DNA of 52,202 bases. Origin: a phage. Positions 6,942 through 36,013 of this stretch are shown here, in pieces (the stretch's first letter is position 1; every line of letters begins with the position of its first letter). The stretch lies in NCBI GenBank assembly GCA_028524385.1, contig GCA_028524385.1_3661.2, one strand, 5' to 3'. The notes under the pieces were generated by a model that saw nothing but the letters and a program-made list of their open reading frames with translations, did no database searches and had not been told where the DNA came from. The position numbers were made by a program, and so were the translations under genes.

Positions 6942-7349
6942 TCAGTCCTCGCATTTAATAAATTTTTCTACAGACCCGCCAAGAACAGCTTGTTGCTTGA
7001 GGGCGCTTTCTTCATCGTAGTGAATAGATTTATGTTCCGTGCCTCCAAACTTACCTGTGTGGAAGGTATGCACCCAAATCTCTTTGGGGAGTGAGTTACC
7101 CTCTTCCTTCACCAACTCCCACATTCCCCACAAATGATCCGTAATATCACGGATAAAATATCCCTCACCGAGGTTTGTATTAACACTGTAGGCAGATTTA
7201 TGATCCCCGCAAGTATAACGGACGGCAGTGTATTCCTTGCCTGCTGTAAAATGGGTATCCATGATTATAGCTGTTATAGAGCTGGGGTCTCGAAAGCCTA
7301 AGAATTTTAGCTTAACAATTTCGACTTTTATATTTGTAAGATTATCCAT
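6942..7349 (-). CDS. hypothetical protein
   Basis: 135-aa ORF; SD gaggag upstream of ATG at 7349; promoter immediately upstream. Confidence 0.45.
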   Translation of the reverse strand: MDNLTNIKVEIVKLKFLGFRDPSSITAIIMDTHFTAGKEYTAVRYTCGDHKSAYSVNTNLGEGYFIRDITDHLWGMWELVKEEGNSLPKEIWVHTFHTGKFGGTEHKSIHYDEESALKQQAVLGGSVEKFIKCED

Positions 7350-27573: not shown

Positions 27574-30500
27574 ATGAGCATGTGGTCTTTCGATTTTGAG
27601 TCATCCGGTTTGCTGGAAGACCCAGATCTTTATTATCACTGCGGCCTGTTTAAAGAGCTGAATAAGAACCGTTTTATGCTGTTCCTTCCTCTAAATGACC
27701 GCACACACTACTCTGAAGAGGATATAGAGAAGGCTAAGAACTTTATTCTGGCAAAGAAAACTCTTTATAAAGATTTTGAAGTTCGCATAGCAGATTTTTC
27801 AGAGTTGGAAGGTTGGCTTACAGGAAATTCTGACTGGTCACCCACAGCTTTGAACTGCCACAACTGCTACAGCTACGACTTTATGCTGATGGAGAGATTG
27901 TCCGGTATTCATTTTGATATGTTCCGTGACCCTAAGTGTATGGGGACTATCAACGACCACCAGGTTAATCTGTTTGATACGTTGGCGATGAGCCGAATCT
28001 TGTGGCCTGATCGCCCTTTACCAAAAGGTTGTCCGGACTCTGTATTCAACCCGGTTACTAAGAAAATGCAGCCTGTTGGTCCTCACGGCCTTATGGCATG
28101 GGGCTACGCCCTTGGTAACCAGAAAGTTCAAATTGATGACTGGCGCGATCTTCCGTTGTGGAAGTATGTGGATCGTGTATTCGAGGACGTTATCATCCAG
28201 GAGCTGCTCTGGAAAGAGCTGGTAGCGGAATCAAAAGGTGTATTCTACGGCAAATCTGACATGCAGAACTTTATGTACGATCCAGCCAAAGAGAAGCCGA
28301 AAGGGTTCAAGAAGATCACCTGGAAGAACGCACTACGTCGAGGCATGCTGCAGCACTTCCTGATGGAGCTGCAGGCCCGTCAGGGTGTATACTTCGACAT
28401 AGATGGAGCTATTGCTTTACGTGACCGTTGCGATGCGTGGATGAAAGAAATCGCTGATCGTGTTGAACCACAACTACCTTTAAAAGAGCTGTCAATGTCT
28501 CAGCGGCCCAAGTTCCCTGAAAAGCCGTTTAACCAAGACGGGACAATCTCTAATAATGGTTGGAAATGGTTAAAAGATAAGCTTGGCTATCCTGTAGACA
28601 TGAGCGCTTTAGATTTCAAAGCCCCGCCTAAGCGAGCATTTACCTCTACAGGAGATGTCAGCAAGATGGGGATAAAATGGTGTGAAGAGATGGGCTGCAA
28701 AGACCCCGATAAGATGGCTGATTTCTTGAGAGGCTATATTAAGGGCACTTCCACACCTCACCCTTTGCCTAAAGAGCTGATGGATCAGGCAATAAGTGAT
28801 CTACAGCAGAAGCGAATGCCGGACTGCAAGATACCTATGAAAATCAGCAATCAGGACGACATTAAGCGGTATCTGATCAGTGCTGGCTGGCTACCGACAA
28901 TGTGGAGAACTAAGGATGTAACTAAAGATAGCAAGAAGAAAGCTCTACCTGATGCGGATGTTGATGCACGAGTATATGCATATATGGACGAGCTTTTAGA
29001 GTCAGAGTATTGTGACCTGATTATCAACTTCTGGAACAAAACTGATGCCAAGTTCCAGACAACTGTGCACAAGTTCCGAAGCTTTCCTAACTCTGAAAGG
29101 ATTAAAAAGGAAGTATTCGGGAAAATACGTAGAAAAGCCAGAGCACTTATTACTTCTCCGCAACTGAAAGATACGTTTGGACACCTGTGTCCGAATCTTG
29201 AAAAATTGAACGGAGAGATGGCTAAAGATATCGTCTTGTGGTTATCATTGCGAAACCGCAGATCAGTCCTTGATCCAATCAAGGAGGATAAGGTTGATAC
29301 TGGTCTTCTTAATCACCCACGTTTGAAGATTGACCATAAGCTTCCTGCTAAAAGCTCTGGATTAACAAACACTTCCAGACAGAAACACAGTATTTGTGCA
29401 AACATGCCTAAACCATCCCCTAAAGTGGTTATGGGTAAAGAGATGCGCAGTCTGTGGGGTGTTCCTCCTGGATACTTTCAGATCGGTATTGACGGGTCCA
29501 ACTTAGAGCAGCTTATCGGGGCTTGGGGTGCCTTTGAGTTCGACAACGGCCTGTATTACGATGTTGTAAGTAACGGCGATGCACATTGTTATTCAGGAGA
29601 TACACAAATTCTCACGGAGAAAGGGTGGGTGAGGTTTGAAGATCTTGATCCGGGAACACAAGTGTTCCAGTACGATCACAACACCTCGTCAATGAACCTT
29701 GTTACTCCATTAAATTACGTTAAGCGTAGTTATTATGGAGATATGTATCATTTCCACAACAGTAGTGTGGATTTTATGGTTACAGATCAACACAGGATGC
29801 TGACTGTGGATCACAGAAGCAATAAATTGTTTGAAGATTTGGCAAAAGACCTGAAAGCAGGTAAAGGGTCTAATTCAGGAAGAAGGTTTATCCATGCGGC
29901 AGAGTTTTATGGGAATACAGCCTTATCTCCTGCCCAGGTTAATTTGCTTATTGCTATTCACGATGATGGGCACTTGCATACAAATAAGGACGGCAGCATC
30001 GTGTGCAGGATTCAGGTCGGAAAGGGAAGAAAAGTTGCAACGCTTTTAGATACTTTTTCTGCTCTAAGCCTTAGTTATGTAGAGCAGAGCGGGAAAACCA
30101 CAAAAGGAGGCTTACTGGCGAGAAGGTTCCAATTCCACGTTCCGTCTTGGGTATTTGAGTTTTTGGACAGCAATAAGGATTTCACCTACAACCTGATGAA
30201 CCTTGATAAAGAATCTAAAAACCTGTTTATAGCTTCTTTATCTAACTGGGACGGGTGGGTATCTTCAGAAGGTGGAAAGGTTGCTTACTACTCCCAGGCC
30301 GAGTGTAGGAAGAAATCTGTAGAGGTGGTGTCTGCGCTGGCTACTCAGTGTGGTTTACGGAATAATACGGTGGCGATTCACAAAAAAGGTCGTGCCGTGC
30401 AGCACAGAATCACAATTGGTAGCAAACAGAGAGCAGGGTTGCTGACACTATCTAAAGAGTCTGTCGAGGTGAGCGGTTCTTTGGTTTATTGCGTTACCGT

Positions 30501-30966
30501 CCCTTCTGGAGCAATCATTGTGAGAAGGAATGGTAAAGTGGCAGTGTGCGGTAACTGTAATAACGCCAAAGCTTACTCTTCTGTAGCAGGCAAGGAGATT
30601 TCCCGTAACGATGGTAAGCCTATCACGTATGGGGTTATGTACGGGGCACAAAAAGATAAAGTTGCAGATATGCTGGACATCTCTCCAGAGTTGGGACAAA
30701 GGGTAATCGATGCACTCTGGGATGCCAACCCTGGTCTCAAGGGGCGCAAAGAGGATCTGGAGAAATTCTGGGAAGCAACTGGTAAGAAGTTTATCTACTC
30801 TTTTGATGGTCATGCTATCTGGACCAGATCTAAACACTCTTTACTTAATGCATACCAACAGAATGGTGGTGCATCGCTGTGTGACTTAGTTGGGATACTT
30901 ATGCACCACCAAATGGTGAAGCGTGGGTGGTACGATGAAGGTGTTCGTCGTATTATTTATTACCAT
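27574..30966 (+). CDS. family A DNA polymerase (T7 gp5-like), exon 1, containing an intein
   Basis: Exo I FDFE, HCG and HGLMAWGYALG as in T7 gp5 exonuclease domain; motif A IDGSNLEQL...NGDAH; motif B-like GKPITYGVMYG after intein; track ORF continues 2 codons into the intron to stop at 30972. Confidence 0.75.
29587..30555 (+). mobile_element. intein (323 aa) with LAGLIDADG-type homing endonuclease domain
   Basis: Inserted after extein ...SNGDAH; starts CYSGDTQILTEKGWVRFEDL; two LAGLIDADG-like motifs (LLIAIHDDGH, LFIASLSNWDGW); ends VYCVTV...VAVCGN followed by +1 Cys; flanks align to T7 gp5 NGDIH|TKNQ...RDNAKTFIYGFLYG. Confidence 0.65.
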
Positions 30967-31242
30967 AAATAACATTGTGGCTTCATAGAGTAATCTATGT
31001 CGAATAACCTCTTTAACTGCGGGAAGCCTAAACCTTATGGCAAGGTAATCCGCAACGAAGCGCTCAAAAGAGCGAACGCTCAGAGGCCATTCCGAAAGGA
31101 AGTAGACCAGCAAGTGCGGTCGAAATGGGAGGATTCCTGTGGTTGCTTATCATAGGAATATGAGATGGTCCGATCCTACGTGAAAACGTATGGCTATGCA
31201 CGTAATGGTGCGGGGTAGCTTAACGACCTACCTGAACTATTG
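30967..31242 (+). ncRNA. group I self-splicing intron (ORF-less) in DNA polymerase gene
   Basis: 276 nt between exon U30966 and terminal intron G31242; P/Q/R/S core elements aactgcgggaag, aatccgcaacg, cagaggcca, gagatggtcc; IGS gugg can pair with exon end ccau. Confidence 0.65.
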
Positions 31243-31596
31243 GATGAGTACCAACTTCAGGTCCCTGACACGCCTAAGTATAAGACTGTGTACACCTTCG
31301 ACACAATTGAAGAATTGGAAGCATTTAAGGCAGAGCAGGAGGCCAAACTTCATGTGTTTGACGGTCATAAGTACAAAAAGGCACGCAAGGATGAAAACGG
31401 AAACGAAGTGGTTGACAGAGACGGAAACACGGTGTACGATCCTATCCTGAACGATGACGGAAAGCTTGAACTTATCTGGAGCCCTGTGGGTGAAATGGTG
31501 GTGCATTGCTTCTGGCAAGCTTCTAAAATGATGGGCGTTCCATTCCAGATCACAGGTGAATACTTGTGTGGTCGGAACTGGGGTGATTGTCACTAA
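31243..31596 (+). CDS. family A DNA polymerase, exon 2 (motif C to C-terminus)
   Basis: Begins DEYQLQV, completing YYH|DEYQLQV (Pol A motif C HDE); ends ...GRNWGDCH like T7 gp5 ...GPNWAICH; no SD or promoter of its own. Confidence 0.65.
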   Translation, partial: DEYQLQVPDTPKYKTVYTFDTIEELEAFKAEQEAKLHVFDGHKYKKARKDENGNEVVDRDGNTVYDPILNDDGKLELIWSPVGEMVVHCFWQASKMMGVPFQITGEYLCGRNWGDCH

Positions 31597-31645
31597 TGTA
31601 AACTATCAGCATAGGGAGGTGCTGTTGAGCAAAGAGGGGATTTTT

Positions 31646-31930
31646 ATGGTAGTAGAACCAACAAAAACATTTACATCTATGACTATCCCTGTTATTATGC
31701 AGGTGGAGTGTGTTCAGGTATCTCAAGTGTGGCCTGGCACCAAAATCCCAACAGGGCCTGATTTCTTTCAGGTTGGGAAAGTGTACAATGTCTGGAAGGC
31801 ACCAGATTGTTACCCTTTCATTAAAGATGACCGTGGAATGTTGTGGTATCTTGGAAATGATTTGACACTGCACCTTGGGAATGCTATTATTGCAGTATTC
31901 AGACTTAACAAGAAGGAGACCGATCAATGA
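31646..31930 (+). CDS. small protein, KDD-G-WY paralog family
   Basis: ATG 31646 with SD agagggga; contains ...FIKDDRGMLWYLGNDLTLHLGNAIIAVF... shared with the next two genes. Confidence 0.4.
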   Translation: MVVEPTKTFTSMTIPVIMQVECVQVSQVWPGTKIPTGPDFFQVGKVYNVWKAPDCYPFIKDDRGMLWYLGNDLTLHLGNAIIAVFRLNKKETDQ

Positions 31931-32154
31931 CAACTTTGGTTAAAGCTACTTTTGTAGAAGAAAAGATGACAGACCTGTCCTTCTTTAAAGAAGGAAAGAC
32001 CTACGAGGTTTATTACGATAAAGCTCGTGCAAACAAAATGATTAAAGACGAGGAAGGGGTTGCCTGGTATATCTCTCACCTGGCAAACGGTGAGTATCAT
32101 ATCTACGGAACCACTTTGCTTGCCAAGTTTGTAGTTGTTGAAGAGGACCTATGA
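31927..32154 (+). CDS. small protein, KDD-G-WY paralog family
   Basis: 75 aa; ...MIKDEEGVAWYISHLANGEYHIYG... Confidence 0.4.
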   Translation: MTTLVKATFVEEKMTDLSFFKEGKTYEVYYDKARANKMIKDEEGVAWYISHLANGEYHIYGTTLLAKFVVVEEDL

Positions 32155-32345
32155 AAGTAAAGTATCTTGCTGAAGGTATGAATAGGTATTTTACCCTTGG
32201 TGAAGAATATTGGCCCTTTACAAACAACGGCGATGTCTACGTGAAAGATAATTTCGGCACGCCGTGGTTTCTGCACTCTAATGGGCTGGGATACTCTATT
32301 TACTGCGGTGCAGTGAACAACACAACTCTTGCAGAGTTCGTTTAG
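32151..32345 (+). CDS. small protein, KDD-G-WY paralog family
   Basis: 64 aa; ...YVKDNFGTPWFLHSNGLGYSIYCG... Confidence 0.4.
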   Translation: MKVKYLAEGMNRYFTLGEEYWPFTNNGDVYVKDNFGTPWFLHSNGLGYSIYCGAVNNTTLAEFV

Positions 32346-32355
32346 AGGAGGTAGG

Positions 32356-32727
32356 ATGCTAGTAAAAGGTACCCACACAGTCAAACAACGTATTGAAGTT
32401 GAGATTGATGATTGTGAGCTGAAGCATATTTTACGGTCATGCTCCAACGTTTTGCTCCTTAGTATTCTTCAGGAGCGAGCGGAGAACGAGTTCTTAAATG
32501 CATTGGCAGGCCGTCCAGGTGACTTTTGTGTGCGTAAGCGTGGTGACAACAAGTCATGGTTGTGGGAAATCGATGCCGACTGGGATTACCACAAAAATGA
32601 GGGCATAGATGAGCCTATTCGTGAACTGACGGACAAAGAGATTCAGATGTACAATGAAGTTTGTCATTGGGCAACACGCCAACAAATTTACCTAGACCCT
32701 GTGTGGCTGATTGAAAATAGCCATTGA
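32356..32727 (+). CDS. hypothetical protein
   Basis: ATG 32356 with SD ggagg (track ORF starts earlier at 32329). Confidence 0.4.
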   Translation: MLVKGTHTVKQRIEVEIDDCELKHILRSCSNVLLLSILQERAENEFLNALAGRPGDFCVRKRGDNKSWLWEIDADWDYHKNEGIDEPIRELTDKEIQMYNEVCHWATRQQIYLDPVWLIENSH

Positions 32728-32752
32728 CAAGAAGTAAGATTAGATATAAGAT
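32724..32752 (+). promoter_or_regulatory. sigma70-type promoter
   Basis: TTGACA-17 nt-TAAGAT, upstream of gene 32804. Confidence 0.5.
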
Positions 32753-32803
32753 GCTTCACACAAACAAAGCGTTGATTTTTAAATAACTAAGGAGACTGCC
32801 AAG

Positions 32804-33058
32804 ATGAAAATTACTTTGAAGCCGGAATGCGTTGCAAATGACCGAGCTTTTAAAGATTGCACAGTCGGTGCAATCTATGAAGCAGAGTTTTGTGAGAACC
32901 CTCTGGTAAAAGCCCTTCTGGAAGAAGGGGCCCCTTTATCACAAGAAGAGATTGATGAGCTGGAAAACTCAGCACAGTGCCTTACCTTTAAAGATGATGA
33001 AGGAGACTCTGTCTGGTGCACTGTTAATGAAGTAGTTTTTGTAAAACCTGAACATTAA
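32804..33058 (+). CDS. small protein, paralog of 33122..33394
   Basis: KPECVANDRAFKDCT...LTFKDDEGDSVWCTV aligns with KPDYLEKDSAFRDCT...ATIKDDQGDYVCCTT of next gene. Confidence 0.45.
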   Translation: MKITLKPECVANDRAFKDCTVGAIYEAEFCENPLVKALLEEGAPLSQEEIDELENSAQCLTFKDDEGDSVWCTVNEVVFVKPEH

Positions 33059-33061
33059 TAC

Positions 33062-33090
33062 TTGACAACAGTGATAGGGCCTAATATAAT
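33062..33090 (+). promoter_or_regulatory. sigma70-type promoter with palindrome around the -10 element
   Basis: TTGACA-17 nt-TATAAT; 9-bp arms gatagggcc / ggccctatc (33073-33081, 33091-33099) embrace the -10 hexamer. Confidence 0.55.
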
Positions 33091-33121
33091 GGCCCTATCA
33101 AAACGAAAGGGGACCACAGCA

Positions 33122-33394
33122 ATGACCAAACAATATCAACGAATTAAAGCCAAGGTTAAGCCAGACTATCTGGAGAAAGACTCTGCTTTTCGGGACTGCA
33201 CAGCCGACAAAGTTTACACAGGGGCCGTCCTGTTGAACGATGAACTTGAAGTAGATATTCTGGGTAAAGAGGCCACTATTAAGGACGACCAAGGCGATTA
33301 TGTTTGCTGCACCACACGTGAGCTAGAAATCTTAGAATACTTCGGTGAAATCTTCACCTCTCTTGATGATTACTTAGATGATGAGGAAGCGTGA
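33122..33394 (+). CDS. small protein, paralog of 32804..33058
   Basis: ATG 33122 with SD aagggg downstream of promoter 33062 (track ORF starts at the TTG of the -35 box). Confidence 0.45.
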   Translation: MTKQYQRIKAKVKPDYLEKDSAFRDCTADKVYTGAVLLNDELEVDILGKEATIKDDQGDYVCCTTRELEILEYFGEIFTSLDDYLDDEEA

Positions 33395-33783
33395 TGAAAA
33401 ATATTTGGGATATTGATATCTTTGAAGCCTCTAAGCTTGATGGTGCTGATGGAGTGATTATGGTATCTGATGGCAAGGCAACACTAACTTCCGGAGATAT
33501 CATCTATGCCTTGGACGAGCTGGCGCTTCTGAAATCTACCGGTAACACTCTAGAGGAGCGTCTTCAAGGCTTCGCCTTCAAAGAAGGTACAAATACAGCC
33601 ATGATGTGCACCACACGGACAGTTCAGATGGGTAACGGTGTCTATATGATTATTGCTGTGTGTCCTAAATTCAGCAACGTCAACAAAGATGATGCTGACG
33701 CGGTAAACGATGTGGTTGTTCTCTTCGTGGGTGACGCTATGGCAGATCTGATGAATGCGGGAGAAGCAGCAAATGAAGACTGA
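33391..33783 (+). CDS. hypothetical protein
   Basis: 130-aa ORF, ATGA overlap with upstream stop. Confidence 0.4.
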   Translation: MMKNIWDIDIFEASKLDGADGVIMVSDGKATLTSGDIIYALDELALLKSTGNTLEERLQGFAFKEGTNTAMMCTTRTVQMGNGVYMIIAVCPKFSNVNKDDADAVNDVVVLFVGDAMADLMNAGEAANED

Positions 33784-34075
33784 AAACATCACCCCAGCAG
33801 GGTTCTTAAAAGTATACCGTGAACTGCTGTATACTACAGAGGACAGTGTTCTAGAGTATCCAGAATATCTCTTGCTGTATAAGTATCTGCAGGAGGCTGG
33901 TGAAAATCTGCCAGTTAGTGCAGAAGGCGGTCCGAACTGGGTATACAGCGCATGGAGAAAGGTTGACATTCTCCCAGACCCAGGCAAAGATATGGTAGTT
34001 TGGCAGCTTATCAACAACATCGGGATTCCAATCTTTGATGAAGCTGTTAAAATCTATTTTGAACTTGACGATTAA
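33773..34075 (+). CDS. hypothetical protein
   Basis: Second in-frame ATG (33773) has SD gggagaag; overlaps upstream stop. Confidence 0.4.
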   Translation: MKTENITPAGFLKVYRELLYTTEDSVLEYPEYLLLYKYLQEAGENLPVSAEGGPNWVYSAWRKVDILPDPGKDMVVWQLINNIGIPIFDEAVKIYFELDD

Positions 34076-34092
34076 TATCAGGAGACCTTAAG

Positions 34093-34338
34093 ATGACTGA
34101 AGTAGTTGCTCGCGCAGGACAGAAAGTACGTTGTGTTGAAGTAGGTTTTGGTGGCAAAGGGTGTCAAAACTTGACTCAAGGTAAGGAATACGCTGTTATC
34201 TCTGGTGGTGGCGACGAAAGTATTGTGTTCGAGGGCCACATCCTGGATGCTGAAAACTTTGAAATCTTTGACGACGATGGGGATCCGATCACCTGCCTGC
34301 TGGACGGGAATTGGGGAACTTTCGAAGTGATTGGCTAA
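34093..34338 (+). CDS. small Gly-rich hypothetical protein
   Basis: 81-aa ORF with SD aggag. Confidence 0.45.
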   Translation: MTEVVARAGQKVRCVEVGFGGKGCQNLTQGKEYAVISGGGDESIVFEGHILDAENFEIFDDDGDPITCLLDGNWGTFEVIG

Positions 34339-34421
34339 CAAATACCTATTGTAATTTACAGAAGGGGATGCTAAAATAGTGTCTCCTTCTATGTTGTTCA
34401 AATAAAATCGGAGATTCCATA

Positions 34422-34787
34422 ATGGAACAAATGAACGATCAAGCGTCGGTTGCGATGAACGAGCAAGAACAACCTCAAGAATTTTTCTTAGGGTTAAGTA
34501 AAGATCAAGTGTCTCTTTTGCTAGTGCTTTCTTCTTTCATGGGAAGACTTCAGGAGCTCACACAACAACCGGAGGCTGAACAATTATTTCAGGCCCTGCG
34601 CGAAGAAGAAAAATATCGTCGTTTGGACTATGCCTTAGGTTGGGTAGCTCAACAACGAGATATGTTGATGGCCCTCTCTGGGACCACAAGTTTTGCAATG
34701 GGCCTGTTGGCTCAAGTTCAGGACAAATTAATTCAAGCAGGGTTTGCACACACGGCAAACACTAACGAAGAACAAGGAGACAAATAA
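34422..34787 (+). CDS. hypothetical protein
   Basis: 121-aa ORF, Q/E-rich. Confidence 0.4.
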   Translation: MEQMNDQASVAMNEQEQPQEFFLGLSKDQVSLLLVLSSFMGRLQELTQQPEAEQLFQALREEEKYRRLDYALGWVAQQRDMLMALSGTTSFAMGLLAQVQDKLIQAGFAHTANTNEEQGDK

Positions 34788-36013
34788 TGAGCGTTATTCA
34801 ACAATTCGCTAACCCGATGAATCCGCGTGAAACTGTTTTACTGGCTCACGGTATGATCAAGCGTGTTAGCATCAAACCTATTAAAGGGGCTGATCCTGCA
34901 ACAGGTATTAAAACCACCGTGTGGCAAGGTAAGAAAATTGAATCCAGCCACACCATCTCTTTACTGATTTCTGAACTGGATTCCTCTGATAACCTGCTTC
35001 AAGGTGGCGAAGAAGTCTGGATCAGCATGGGTGATAAGCTGCTTAAACCGGGTCATCAAGACTCTGTCTCTGTTAAGATTGATGACAAGTGGGAAACCGT
35101 AACACCAGGATGGATCGTAAATATCCCTTTGAAGGCAAACGAGCATAACGGTAAGACCTATTACAAAGGCTCACTGGCTAAGATGGTCAAGCTGGGTGCA
35201 GGAGAGGCTCCAGCAGCGACTCAGCAGCAAAAACAGCAACAAGGTGCACAATCACAAGGTCAGAAGCAGAAACCTCAGCAGAATGCCAATCAGGACGTTT
35301 TACGCATCTATGGCGATGTGACTCAGATTGTTGGCAACGTGGTTACTGTTAATGACCACAAGATCGGCGAAGGTGCTATGGTTGTCACGGATGAGCAGCT
35401 TAAAGACCTGGTGGTAGGTGGTCGTGTTGCAGCCATTGTTGACAAAGCCACCGGAAACATTATCAGTGGTTTCAAAGCCTATCCACCTAAGGCAGAGAAC
35501 GGCACCCAAGGTTCTGGTGGCAAGCGTAAATCCTCTTACGACCCTATCGGTGTGGAGACGGGGCATAGCATCAATGCGTTGCAGATCATCCTGGATCGCG
35601 GGTTTAAGGTAGACGACCCACTAGGCGTGGCTAAAACACTGCACGTAGTCACCATTGAGCTTAAGAAAGAGTATGCTCAAGCCACCAACCGAACTGAAGA
35701 TGAAGTAGGTGCCAGTGTCGGTAATGCGGTGTTGAACGCTTGTCGCCGTATTAACAAGAAAACGAAAGTTGATGATTTTGCAGCGGCAATTACTGCAGAA
35801 GCAAAAGATGTCTTGACTAATCTGGCTGAGCCGTTGTACGATTGGATCAAGAACGGTTCTGGGTCCACTGACCATCAAGAACCCCAAGCTGCCAAACAGG
35901 AAGCAGCTCCACAGCAAAACACTGTAGACGCTCCTCCTGTAAATGATGAGGAAGATGACCCAATGGATCAGAATCCAGCACAGTACTCCTTTGATGATGA
36001 CATCCCTTTTTAA
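34787..36013 (+). CDS. single-stranded-DNA-binding-like protein with SSB-type acidic C-terminal tip
   Basis: C-terminus ...SFDDDIPF matches the bacterial SSB C-terminal tip (DDDIPF); internal Q-rich low-complexity linker; placed in replication region. OB fold not verified. Confidence 0.45.
   Translation: MSVIQQFANPMNPRETVLLAHGMIKRVSIKPIKGADPATGIKTTVWQGKKIESSHTISLLISELDSSDNLLQGGEEVWISMGDKLLKPGHQDSVSVKIDDKWETVTPGWIVNIPLKANEHNGKTYYKGSLAKMVKLGAGEAPAATQQQKQQQGAQSQGQKQKPQQNANQDVLRIYGDVTQIVGNVVTVNDHKIGEGAMVVTDEQLKDLVVGGRVAAIVDKATGNIISGFKAYPPKAENGTQGSGGKRKSSYDPIGVETGHSINALQIILDRGFKVDDPLGVAKTLHVVTIELKKEYAQATNRTEDEVGASVGNAVLNACRRINKKTKVDDFAAAITAEAKDVLTNLAEPLYDWIKNGSGSTDHQEPQAAKQEAAPQQNTVDAPPVNDEEDDPMDQNPAQYSFDDDIPF

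Follow-up and report, generated by a model that had tools for sequence, protein, structure and literature searches.

Most small early genes of phages have no known role and are scattered in databases over tiny orphan families. Six such genes, designated g1 to g6, are considered here in the window, which is the whole stretch of 52,202 nucleotides of phage DNA that was analyzed (NCBI GenBank assembly GCA_028524385.1, contig GCA_028524385.1_3661.2). The window comes from a Vequintavirus (an rV5-like E. coli myophage), and over positions 31200-34500 its identity is 98.2% to phage LL12 and at least 80% to 119 phage records. The six genes lie in a stretch of about 2.7 kb directly 3′ of the DNA polymerase gene, all are labelled 'hypothetical protein' in the LL12 annotation, and related phages annotate g1 to g5 as separate hypothetical proteins. 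The question that the locus raises is whether these genes are copies of one module and, if so, of what kind. We consider it reasonably likely that they are six diverged paralogs of one small, single-domain, non-enzymatic beta-barrel module, serving as early protein-binding accessory factors. The result is a classification, not the discovery of a function, and it gathers six genes of a common, therapeutically used E. coli phage group into one module family. The genes are as follows, with lengths in amino acids (aa), PHROG families and, for three of them, isoelectric points (pI).

31646..31930, plus strand: g1, 94 aa, phrog_12922, group A paralog
31927..32154, plus strand: g2, 75 aa, phrog_12623, group A paralog
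32151..32345, plus strand: g3, 64 aa, phrog_12802, group A paralog
32804..33058, plus strand: g4, 84 aa, phrog_12544, group B paralog, pI 4.2
33122..33394, plus strand: g5, 90 aa, phrog_11936, group B paralog, pI 4.2
34093..34338, plus strand: g6, 81 aa, phrog_4927, pI 4.1

Similarity within groups A and B

The original prediction had described g1 to g5, proposing that g1 to g3 share one motif and that g4 and g5 share another. The five open reading frames (ORFs) are present on the plus strand with the coordinates given for them, and the motifs are shared exactly as claimed, both in group A (IKDDRGMLWYL in g1, IKDEEGVAWYI in g2 and VKDNFGTPWFL in g3) and in group B (KDDEGDSVWCT in g4 and KDDQGDYVCCT in g5). 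The quoted motifs were found in no other window ORF of at least 40 aa and in 0 of 200 shuffles, a count of a post-hoc pattern that serves as a sanity check only. Smith-Waterman scores, compared with 2000 composition-preserving shuffles and expressed as Gumbel P values, place the within-group similarity far above composition-matched shuffles for g1-g2 (z = 10.5, P = 5e-7), g2-g3 (z = 5.7, P = 4e-4, over the full length) and g4-g5 (z = 14.5, P = 4e-9), with P = 0.016 for g1-g3 and a paralog identity of 27-36%. Alignments of the orthologs of each gene, F1 to F6, were built from word-indexed homolog searches, which, with single sequences as with both alignments, returned Vequintavirus-type sequences only, the long contigs being 120-141 kb, and no distant relatives. 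With hhalign, F1 and F2 align at 72% probability (E 3.5e-5) and F4 and F5 at 97% (E 3e-11). Each window protein falls into a PHROG of its own as the founder-type member, with E values from 1e-28 to 1e-68, and has weak cross-matches to others, such as g4 to the g5 family (8e-6), g5 to the g4 family (6e-6) and g2 to the g1 family (0.0018). From these sequence comparisons, similarity within the groups beyond chance is statistically solid, with g1 to g3 forming one set of paralogs and g4 and g5 another.

A sixth member, g6, lies within the range covered by the original prediction (31646-34338) and was absent from its description. It carries the motifs VRCVEV ... LTQGKEYAV ... EIFDDDGDPITC, and in a joint alignment g4, g5 and g6 share an invariant C...T.G..Y...DD.GD...C (the C, Y, D-D-x-G-D and C columns). 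The Smith-Waterman P value for g4-g6 is 0.02 and the hhalign E value for F5-F6 is 0.0045. In g1, an N-terminal extension precedes the module (VECVQV ... FFQVGKVYNV ... IKDDRGMLWYL); its start is uncertain, being the ATG at 31646 in phages isim, FV3 and JEP1 and the TTG at 31625 in LL12, and the ORF opens with the GTG at 31556. The C-terminal tail of g5 is acidic (DDYLDDEEA). Within two g1 orthologs from other Vequintavirus contigs (P0032 and P0033), 11 residues are duplicated in tandem just ahead of the KDDRG hairpin (PDCHPFIKEKA-PNCYPFIKDD), which suggests ongoing small-scale duplication inside the module.

Tandem-array repeats as a bridge between the groups

The connection between groups A and B comes from an exhaustive HMMER search with a profile of g1 to g3, which found 19 proteins at E ≤ 1e-3. 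Among these are distant g2-like and g3-like single-domain proteins (P0091 and P0088), other single-domain proteins (P0097 and P0100) and metagenomic proteins with two to five tandem copies of one repeat. The g2-like and g3-like lineages are already distinct in more distant relatives. The repeat of the array proteins reads G-x-v-L-K-C ... (F/W)-T-x-G-K-E-Y-x-V ... (I/V)-x-D-D-x-G and brings together the K-C seen in group B and the GKxY...DDxG..W seen in group A. One array protein is fused to DUF3310, another is on a 61-kb phage- or plasmid-like contig, and no Pfam family was found for the array proteins. Two very large beta-rich surface-type proteins (P0090 and P0093) were treated as probably spurious repeat matches.

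A profile built from the array repeats alone (REP), with no window sequences in it, was searched against the 362 window ORFs and matched g1 (E 1.7e-9), g3 (1.5e-8), g2 (2.1e-8) and g6 (3.3e-6). The arrays had been found with the g1-g3 profile, and therefore only the g6 match is independent. REP does not significantly match g4 (E 0.77, rank 6 of 362) or g5 (E 1.0, rank 8). In hhalign comparisons REP aligned to the families of g1, g2, g3 and g6 at 94-96%, such as F1 at 94%, F3 at 96% (E 2.7e-9) and F6 at 95% (E 4e-8), and to the combined g4 and g5 family (F45) at 37% (E 3.5e-4). A second profile (GA) joins REP to group A, including diverged orthologs from the contigs L023 and L024 described below, and contains zero group B sequence. 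It aligned to the g6 family (F6b) at 95% (E 4.3e-8) and to the g4 and g5 family (F45b) at 67% (E 5.3e-5), with decoys at E ≥ 0.1, and a further profile, SUPER, aligned to F45 at 58% (E 1e-4). Across the REP, SUPER and GA comparisons to the g4 and g5 family, decoys gave E values of 0.05-0.35, and the bridging alignments keep both motifs in the correct register. On this sequence evidence there is good support for g1, g2, g3 and g6 as members of one superfamily and moderate support for g4 and g5 as members of it too.

A 135-aa ORF in the leftward gene cluster of the window (6942-7349, minus strand) reads HFTAGKEYTAV ... GYFIRDITDHLWGMWELV. It is the best REP match outside the cluster of six, is not significant (E 0.07), and is possibly a seventh copy, highly diverged and with a C-terminal extension fused to it.

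Predicted structures and the core of the module

AlphaFold2 models were made of g2, with the alignment of F1 to F3, and of g5. The g2 model (predicted local distance difference test, pLDDT, 91.5) is a six-stranded small beta-barrel with a short helix in the loop between strands 1 and 2, comprising strand 1 (residues 2-10), the helix (12-16) and strands 2 to 6 (25-31, 36-40, 46-48, 56-60 and 64-70). The g5 model (pLDDT 81.5) is a five-stranded SH3-like barrel. The two models bear out the proposal that the duplicated module would be beta-rich, both being small beta-barrels, and in both G-K-x-Y opens strand 2 and KDDxG forms the turn of the strand 3-4 hairpin. In g4, an insertion of about 25 aa separates strand 2 from the KDDEGD hairpin. 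As judged from the models, a six-stranded barrel with a prominent strand 1-2 loop, like that of Gp54 of phage Bas11, and a five-stranded barrel superposable on domains of the SH3, KOW or Sm type are both recognizable. For g2 a fold of the Gp54(Bas11) type is predicted, for g1 and g3 it is assumed by homology, and g4 to g6 look like a five-stranded SH3-like variant.

The core of the module consists of strand 1, often with h-K-C-V, a loop or short helix, strand 2 with (F/W)-(T/K)-x-G-K-x-Y-x-V, and the strand 3-4 hairpin, whose turn reads h-h-(K)-D-(D/E)-x-G and is often followed by W. The models suggest that the conserved residues are mainly determinants of the fold, namely turn glycines and an aromatic core.

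Distribution and copy number

A Foldseek search of BFVD with the g2 model returned many proteins of 60-80 aa with TM-scores (template modeling scores) of 0.7-0.8, from T1-like phages (several per genome), CR9, phAPEC8 and one Vequintavirus. REP matches the gene directly downstream of the Gp54 homolog in the T1-like phages PHB17 (E 4e-10) and vojen (2e-8), and further matches in T1-like phages are bas09_0074, bas09_0072, bas11_0048 and bas11_0071. Weak relatives of g6 are found in Drexlerviridae and in other Klebsiella phages of about 46-48 kb. By phmmer and hidden Markov model (HMM) scans, no members were found downstream of the polymerase in 4MG, PVP-SE1, CR8, Mydo, Kashira, Hena1 and UPEC06, of which 4MG, PVP-SE1, CR8, Mydo, Hena1 and UPEC06 belong to other genera or are unclassified within the Vequintavirinae. 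In searches of Pfam, NCBIfam and PDB sequences, neither the six proteins nor the two family profiles had a match that reached the threshold. Enterobacterial phages carry the module widely, and Pfam has no family for it.

Synteny is kept in two more diverged Vequintavirus-like contigs, L023 and L024, where orthologs of g4, g5 and g6 follow the group A copies. L023 has five group A copies with an Ead/Ea22-like gene among them, and six are visible in L024 before the contig ends. Copy number therefore shifts between relatives, and the duplications are old. The question of whether homologs in other phages are single-copy, which had been raised together with the original prediction, is answered in the negative, in that they are usually multi-copy, with several in T1-like phages, more in close relatives and up to five per chain in the arrays. 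In these contigs (L023 4203-4805 and L024 2-190) the g1 and g2 orthologs are separated by the Ead/Ea22-like gene, of 200 aa, together with one of 63 aa. L024 has, upstream of its g4 ortholog, a gene of 90 aa with ...GFDDDPITM... that may be another diverged copy.

Selection, charge and expression signals

Whole-gene ratios of nonsynonymous to synonymous substitution rates (dN/dS), calculated against FV3, JEP1, isim and LL12, are 0.0-0.3 for all six genes, similar to exon 2 of the polymerase, with values of 0.00-0.06 for g1, 0.00-0.10 for g3, 0.00-0.13 for g4 and 0.07-0.16 for g6. The six are therefore real, constrained genes, and that all copies are kept by purifying selection is well supported. 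Spurious ORFs as an explanation are rejected in view of these ratios, of conservation in more than 100 genomes and of the confident models. Five of the six proteins have a pI of 4.1-5.1 and a net charge of -2 to -12.5 (-10 to -12.5 in g4, g5 and g6), and g1 has a pI of 6.5 and a net charge of -0.4.

The start of g2 overlaps the stop of g1, and the start of g3 the stop of g2 (ATGA), and g1 to g3 appear to be co-transcribed with the polymerase. The following signals were found around g4 to g6.

32724..32752, plus strand: sigma-70-like promoter (TTGACA-17-TAAGAT, 10/12) in the 76-bp gap upstream of g4, a consensus match only
33062..33090, plus strand: perfect sigma-70 consensus promoter (TTGACA-17-TATAAT, 12/12) upstream of g5, the sole 12/12 site in a 10-kb scan
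34360..34390, plus strand: terminator-like hairpin with a 14-pair stem directly 3′ of g6, a pattern match with a weak T tract

Interpretation and alternative explanations

In the explanation that we favor, old duplications would have given rise to the six genes. The proteins would be made early, from the sigma-70-type promoters in the early/replication block, and each paralog would display a different surface on a common scaffold with which it would bind other proteins, either of the host or of a defense system. Binding might involve a barrel that opens in part and then pairs its strands with the partner, as in Gp54 with CapRel. An early accessory, protein-binding role is proposed because of the sigma-70-type promoters, the position in the early/replication block, the acidity of five of the six proteins and the absence of the genes from other Vequintavirinae genera with the same replication genes. 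If the link to Gp54 by predicted fold is true, the conserved residues would be explained as fold determinants, and the module would provide a concrete list of candidate phage proteins that bind, or are sensed by, host or defense proteins.

Several observations weigh against this explanation. Of the six proteins, g2 and g5 were modeled, with differing strand counts (six and five, respectively), and the folds of the other four are taken from homology. In direct hhalign comparisons among F1 to F6, F2-F3 and every cross-group pair score at the level of reversed decoys, the A3 and A4 profiles align at 1.2%, and the membership of g4 and g5 depends on hhalign probabilities of 58-67% obtained through the bridge. 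Early expression is read from promoter consensus only, whole-gene dN/dS gives no sign of an arms race within the genus, and the bridging profiles align to Gp54 no better than decoys (E 0.13-0.48). The role as binding factors is proposed from the fold, the charge, the position and one structural relative. The original proposal of a repeatedly duplicated beta-rich module is supported, for the beta-rich character and for duplication within each group, and between groups by way of the bridging profile.

In one alternative, g1-g3, g4-g5 and g6 are two or three unrelated families that converged on a KDDxG hairpin turn and a generic G-K-x-Y strand start, both of which are common in small beta proteins. 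The decoy-level cross-group alignments and the differing strand counts speak for it, as does the Smith-Waterman comparison of single sequences (2000 shuffles), in which pairs between groups A and B are not significant (P ≥ 0.08) and all cross-group pairs other than g4-g6 have P ≥ 0.05. We nevertheless regard separate origins as unlikely because of the profile bridge, in which GA, without any group B sequence, matches both g6 and the g4 and g5 family at the values given above. The mixed motif of the array repeats, the matches of members of both groups to PHROGs 10169 and 3523, and the location of the motif, which falls on identical secondary-structure elements in the models of g2 and g5, also argue against convergence. 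A different function for one family is envisaged if the proteins are replisome accessory factors, that is, SH3, KOW or Sm-like barrels that bind DNA, RNA or replication proteins and whose genes lie where they do because the products act together with the polymerase, the helicase-primase and the SSB-like protein. This accords with their position between the DNA polymerase and a 408-aa protein with a tail of the single-strand-binding protein (SSB) type (FDDDIPF), with the apparent co-transcription of g1 to g3 with the polymerase, and with their overlapping stop and start codons. It is improbable because of the acidity of five of the six proteins, which speaks against nucleic-acid binding, and because of the patchy distribution, the genes being absent at the same position in other Vequintavirinae genera, where the helicase and polymerase are retained, and variable in copy number between close relatives; in addition, the structural relative Gp54 is dispensable for growth.

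That the proteins are minor virion or decoration proteins is very improbable given their genomic position, in the replication/early block behind sigma-70 consensus promoters and far from the structural modules. The weak PHROG matches of g2 that would point in this direction ('virion structural protein', E 0.055, and 'tail completion/Neck1', 0.21) are not significant. The BFVD neighbor from the Vequintavirus isim labelled 'putative minor capsid protein' (78 aa) carries an unverified label and is encoded outside the g1-g6 block.

A wider form of the favored explanation, which is speculative and for which we see a small chance, is that the module serves phages very widely as a scaffold that duplicates rapidly and binds proteins of the host or of immunity, with Gp54 as one diverged member. 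The counterpart of the conserved core of strands 2 to 5 would then be the portion of Gp54 that remains folded and touches CapRel, and bacterial sensors, CapRel-type toxins among them, might recognize this core as a pathogen-associated pattern. The six Vequintavirus paralogs would be counter-defense factors as well as potential triggers of defense systems yet to be matched to them.

Neighboring genes and the polymerase locus

The other genes of the locus are the following.

Upstream neighbor of DNA polymerase A: helicase-primase
27574-30972 and second exon 31240-31596, plus strand: DNA polymerase A
Ending at 32727, between g3 and g4: gX
33394-33783, between g5 and gZ: gY
33773-34075, plus strand: gZ, matching Pfam DUF7238 (30.6 bits, cut-off 27)
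3′ of g6: a 121-aa gene, followed by a 408-aa gene

The sole small gene in the block above a Pfam threshold is gZ, which is unrelated to the module family. The 408-aa protein (34787-36013, plus strand) ends in ...SFDDDIPF, the motif at the C-terminal tip of E. coli SSB, and has no match in Pfam or NCBIfam; it could be a phage single-strand-binding protein or a mimic that recruits the partners of SSB.

A group I intron (30957-31192, plus strand; RF00028, 64.7 bits, E 3.8e-16) splits the polymerase gene just 5′ of the region of the HDE motif C. The first ORF ends at 30972 with ...IIYYHK*, the reading frame is taken up again at about 31243 (DEYQLQV...), and the LL12 annotation has the same gene interrupted by an intron. 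Polymerase residues 672-994 (29587-30555, plus strand) are a 323-aa insertion relative to the LL12 polymerase with the hallmarks of an intein, opening with Cys (CYSGDTQILT...) and closing with ...VAVCGN followed by Cys, with a weak, below-threshold match to Hint_2. The window polymerase therefore carries both an intein and an intron. The polymerase coding sequence of phage JEP1 is equal in length to that of the window. Sixteen records (MG0656xx, 'Campylobacter phage C2, C5, D1, A141 ...', labelled C. jejuni) are about 97% identical to the window region and look like mislabelled or contaminating E. coli phages.

Comparison with known systems

The closest structural counterpart is Gp54 of Escherichia phage Bas11 (JohannLBurckhardt; PDB 9AXB and 9ERV; phrog_7421; sequence taken from MZ501085), a non-essential protein of 66 aa whose crystal structure, from 2024, shows a fold described as very rare (PMC11578894). 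Gp54 directly activates the CapRelSJ46 toxin by binding its pseudo-zinc-finger once strands 1 and 6 unfold, with G24, I25, S39, L41 and W43 making the contacts, and close Gp54 homologs, even those with three substitutions, fail to trigger CapRelSJ46 (PMC11578894). Its authors suggested an anti-defense role and named the SH3 domain of RecD as the nearest other fold (PMC11578894). Like g1 to g6, Gp54 is small and mildly acidic (pI 5.2) and is encoded among many small genes of unknown function, and like g2 it has F-K-x-G and G-x-x-W in equivalent positions. The alignment of F2 with the Gp54 family by hhalign (21%, E 1e-3, 49 columns, decoy score 5.6) pairs F20, G23, G44 and W47 of g2 with F21, G24, G40 and W43 of Gp54.

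The two differ, however, in that identity in the structural alignment is just 16% and Gp54 has Y-H-S-G in place of the KDDxG turn. In the same hhalign alignment g2 differs at three of the five CapRel contacts (I25 to K, S39 to E and L41 to V), and since close homologs of Gp54 are inactive as well, activation of CapRelSJ46 by the window proteins is, from sequence, not expected. None of g1 to g6 matches phrog_7421, HMMER gave no match between g2 and Gp54 in either direction (Gp54-family HMM against g2, E 0.29), the PDB profile search did not return 9AXB, and the A3 profile aligned to the Gp54 family at 1.4%. The weak Drexlerviridae relatives of g6 were rejected as Gp54 homologs, as the PDB search misses 9AXB and they belong to phrog_4927, not phrog_7421. 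Sequence membership of the Gp54 family having failed, the window set is therefore to be seen as sequence-divergent members of a known fold and not as part of the Gp54 sequence family.

With SH3-like small barrels (RecD SH3, 5LD2; FeoA; the KOW-like domains of Ski2/Mtr4; eukaryotic SH3) the module has the general five-stranded architecture in common. They have no sequence relation to it, g1 to g3 have a sixth strand, and a binding site for proline peptides or nucleic acids cannot be inferred for the module. Nip of Bacillus phage phi3T, which counters the SpbK defense, is predicted to have two tandem SH3-like domains and binds the defense protein (PMC11984713). Nip serves solely as a precedent for how the module might work, and differs in its host, its length (279 aa) and its HU-like dimerization domain.

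The nearest set of relatives by sequence is an unnamed family that is spread over PHROGs 12922, 12623, 12802, 12544, 11936, 4927, 10169, 3523, 3249 and 17857, all labelled 'unknown function', and that occurs as single genes, as several genes per genome, as two to five tandem copies per chain and as a fusion to DUF3310. The threshold of Pfam DUF7244 (27 bits) is not reached by g6 (14.5 bits, E 0.038) or by the array proteins P0094 and P0099 (21.8 bits). What appears to be new here, as judged from sequence, is that proteins split over many PHROGs and grouped by no database are put into one module family. The predicted fold ties this family to Gp54, no other related protein having both a solved structure and a molecular interaction that is known, and, if the assignment is true, the 'very rare' fold of Gp54 would actually be common in phages.

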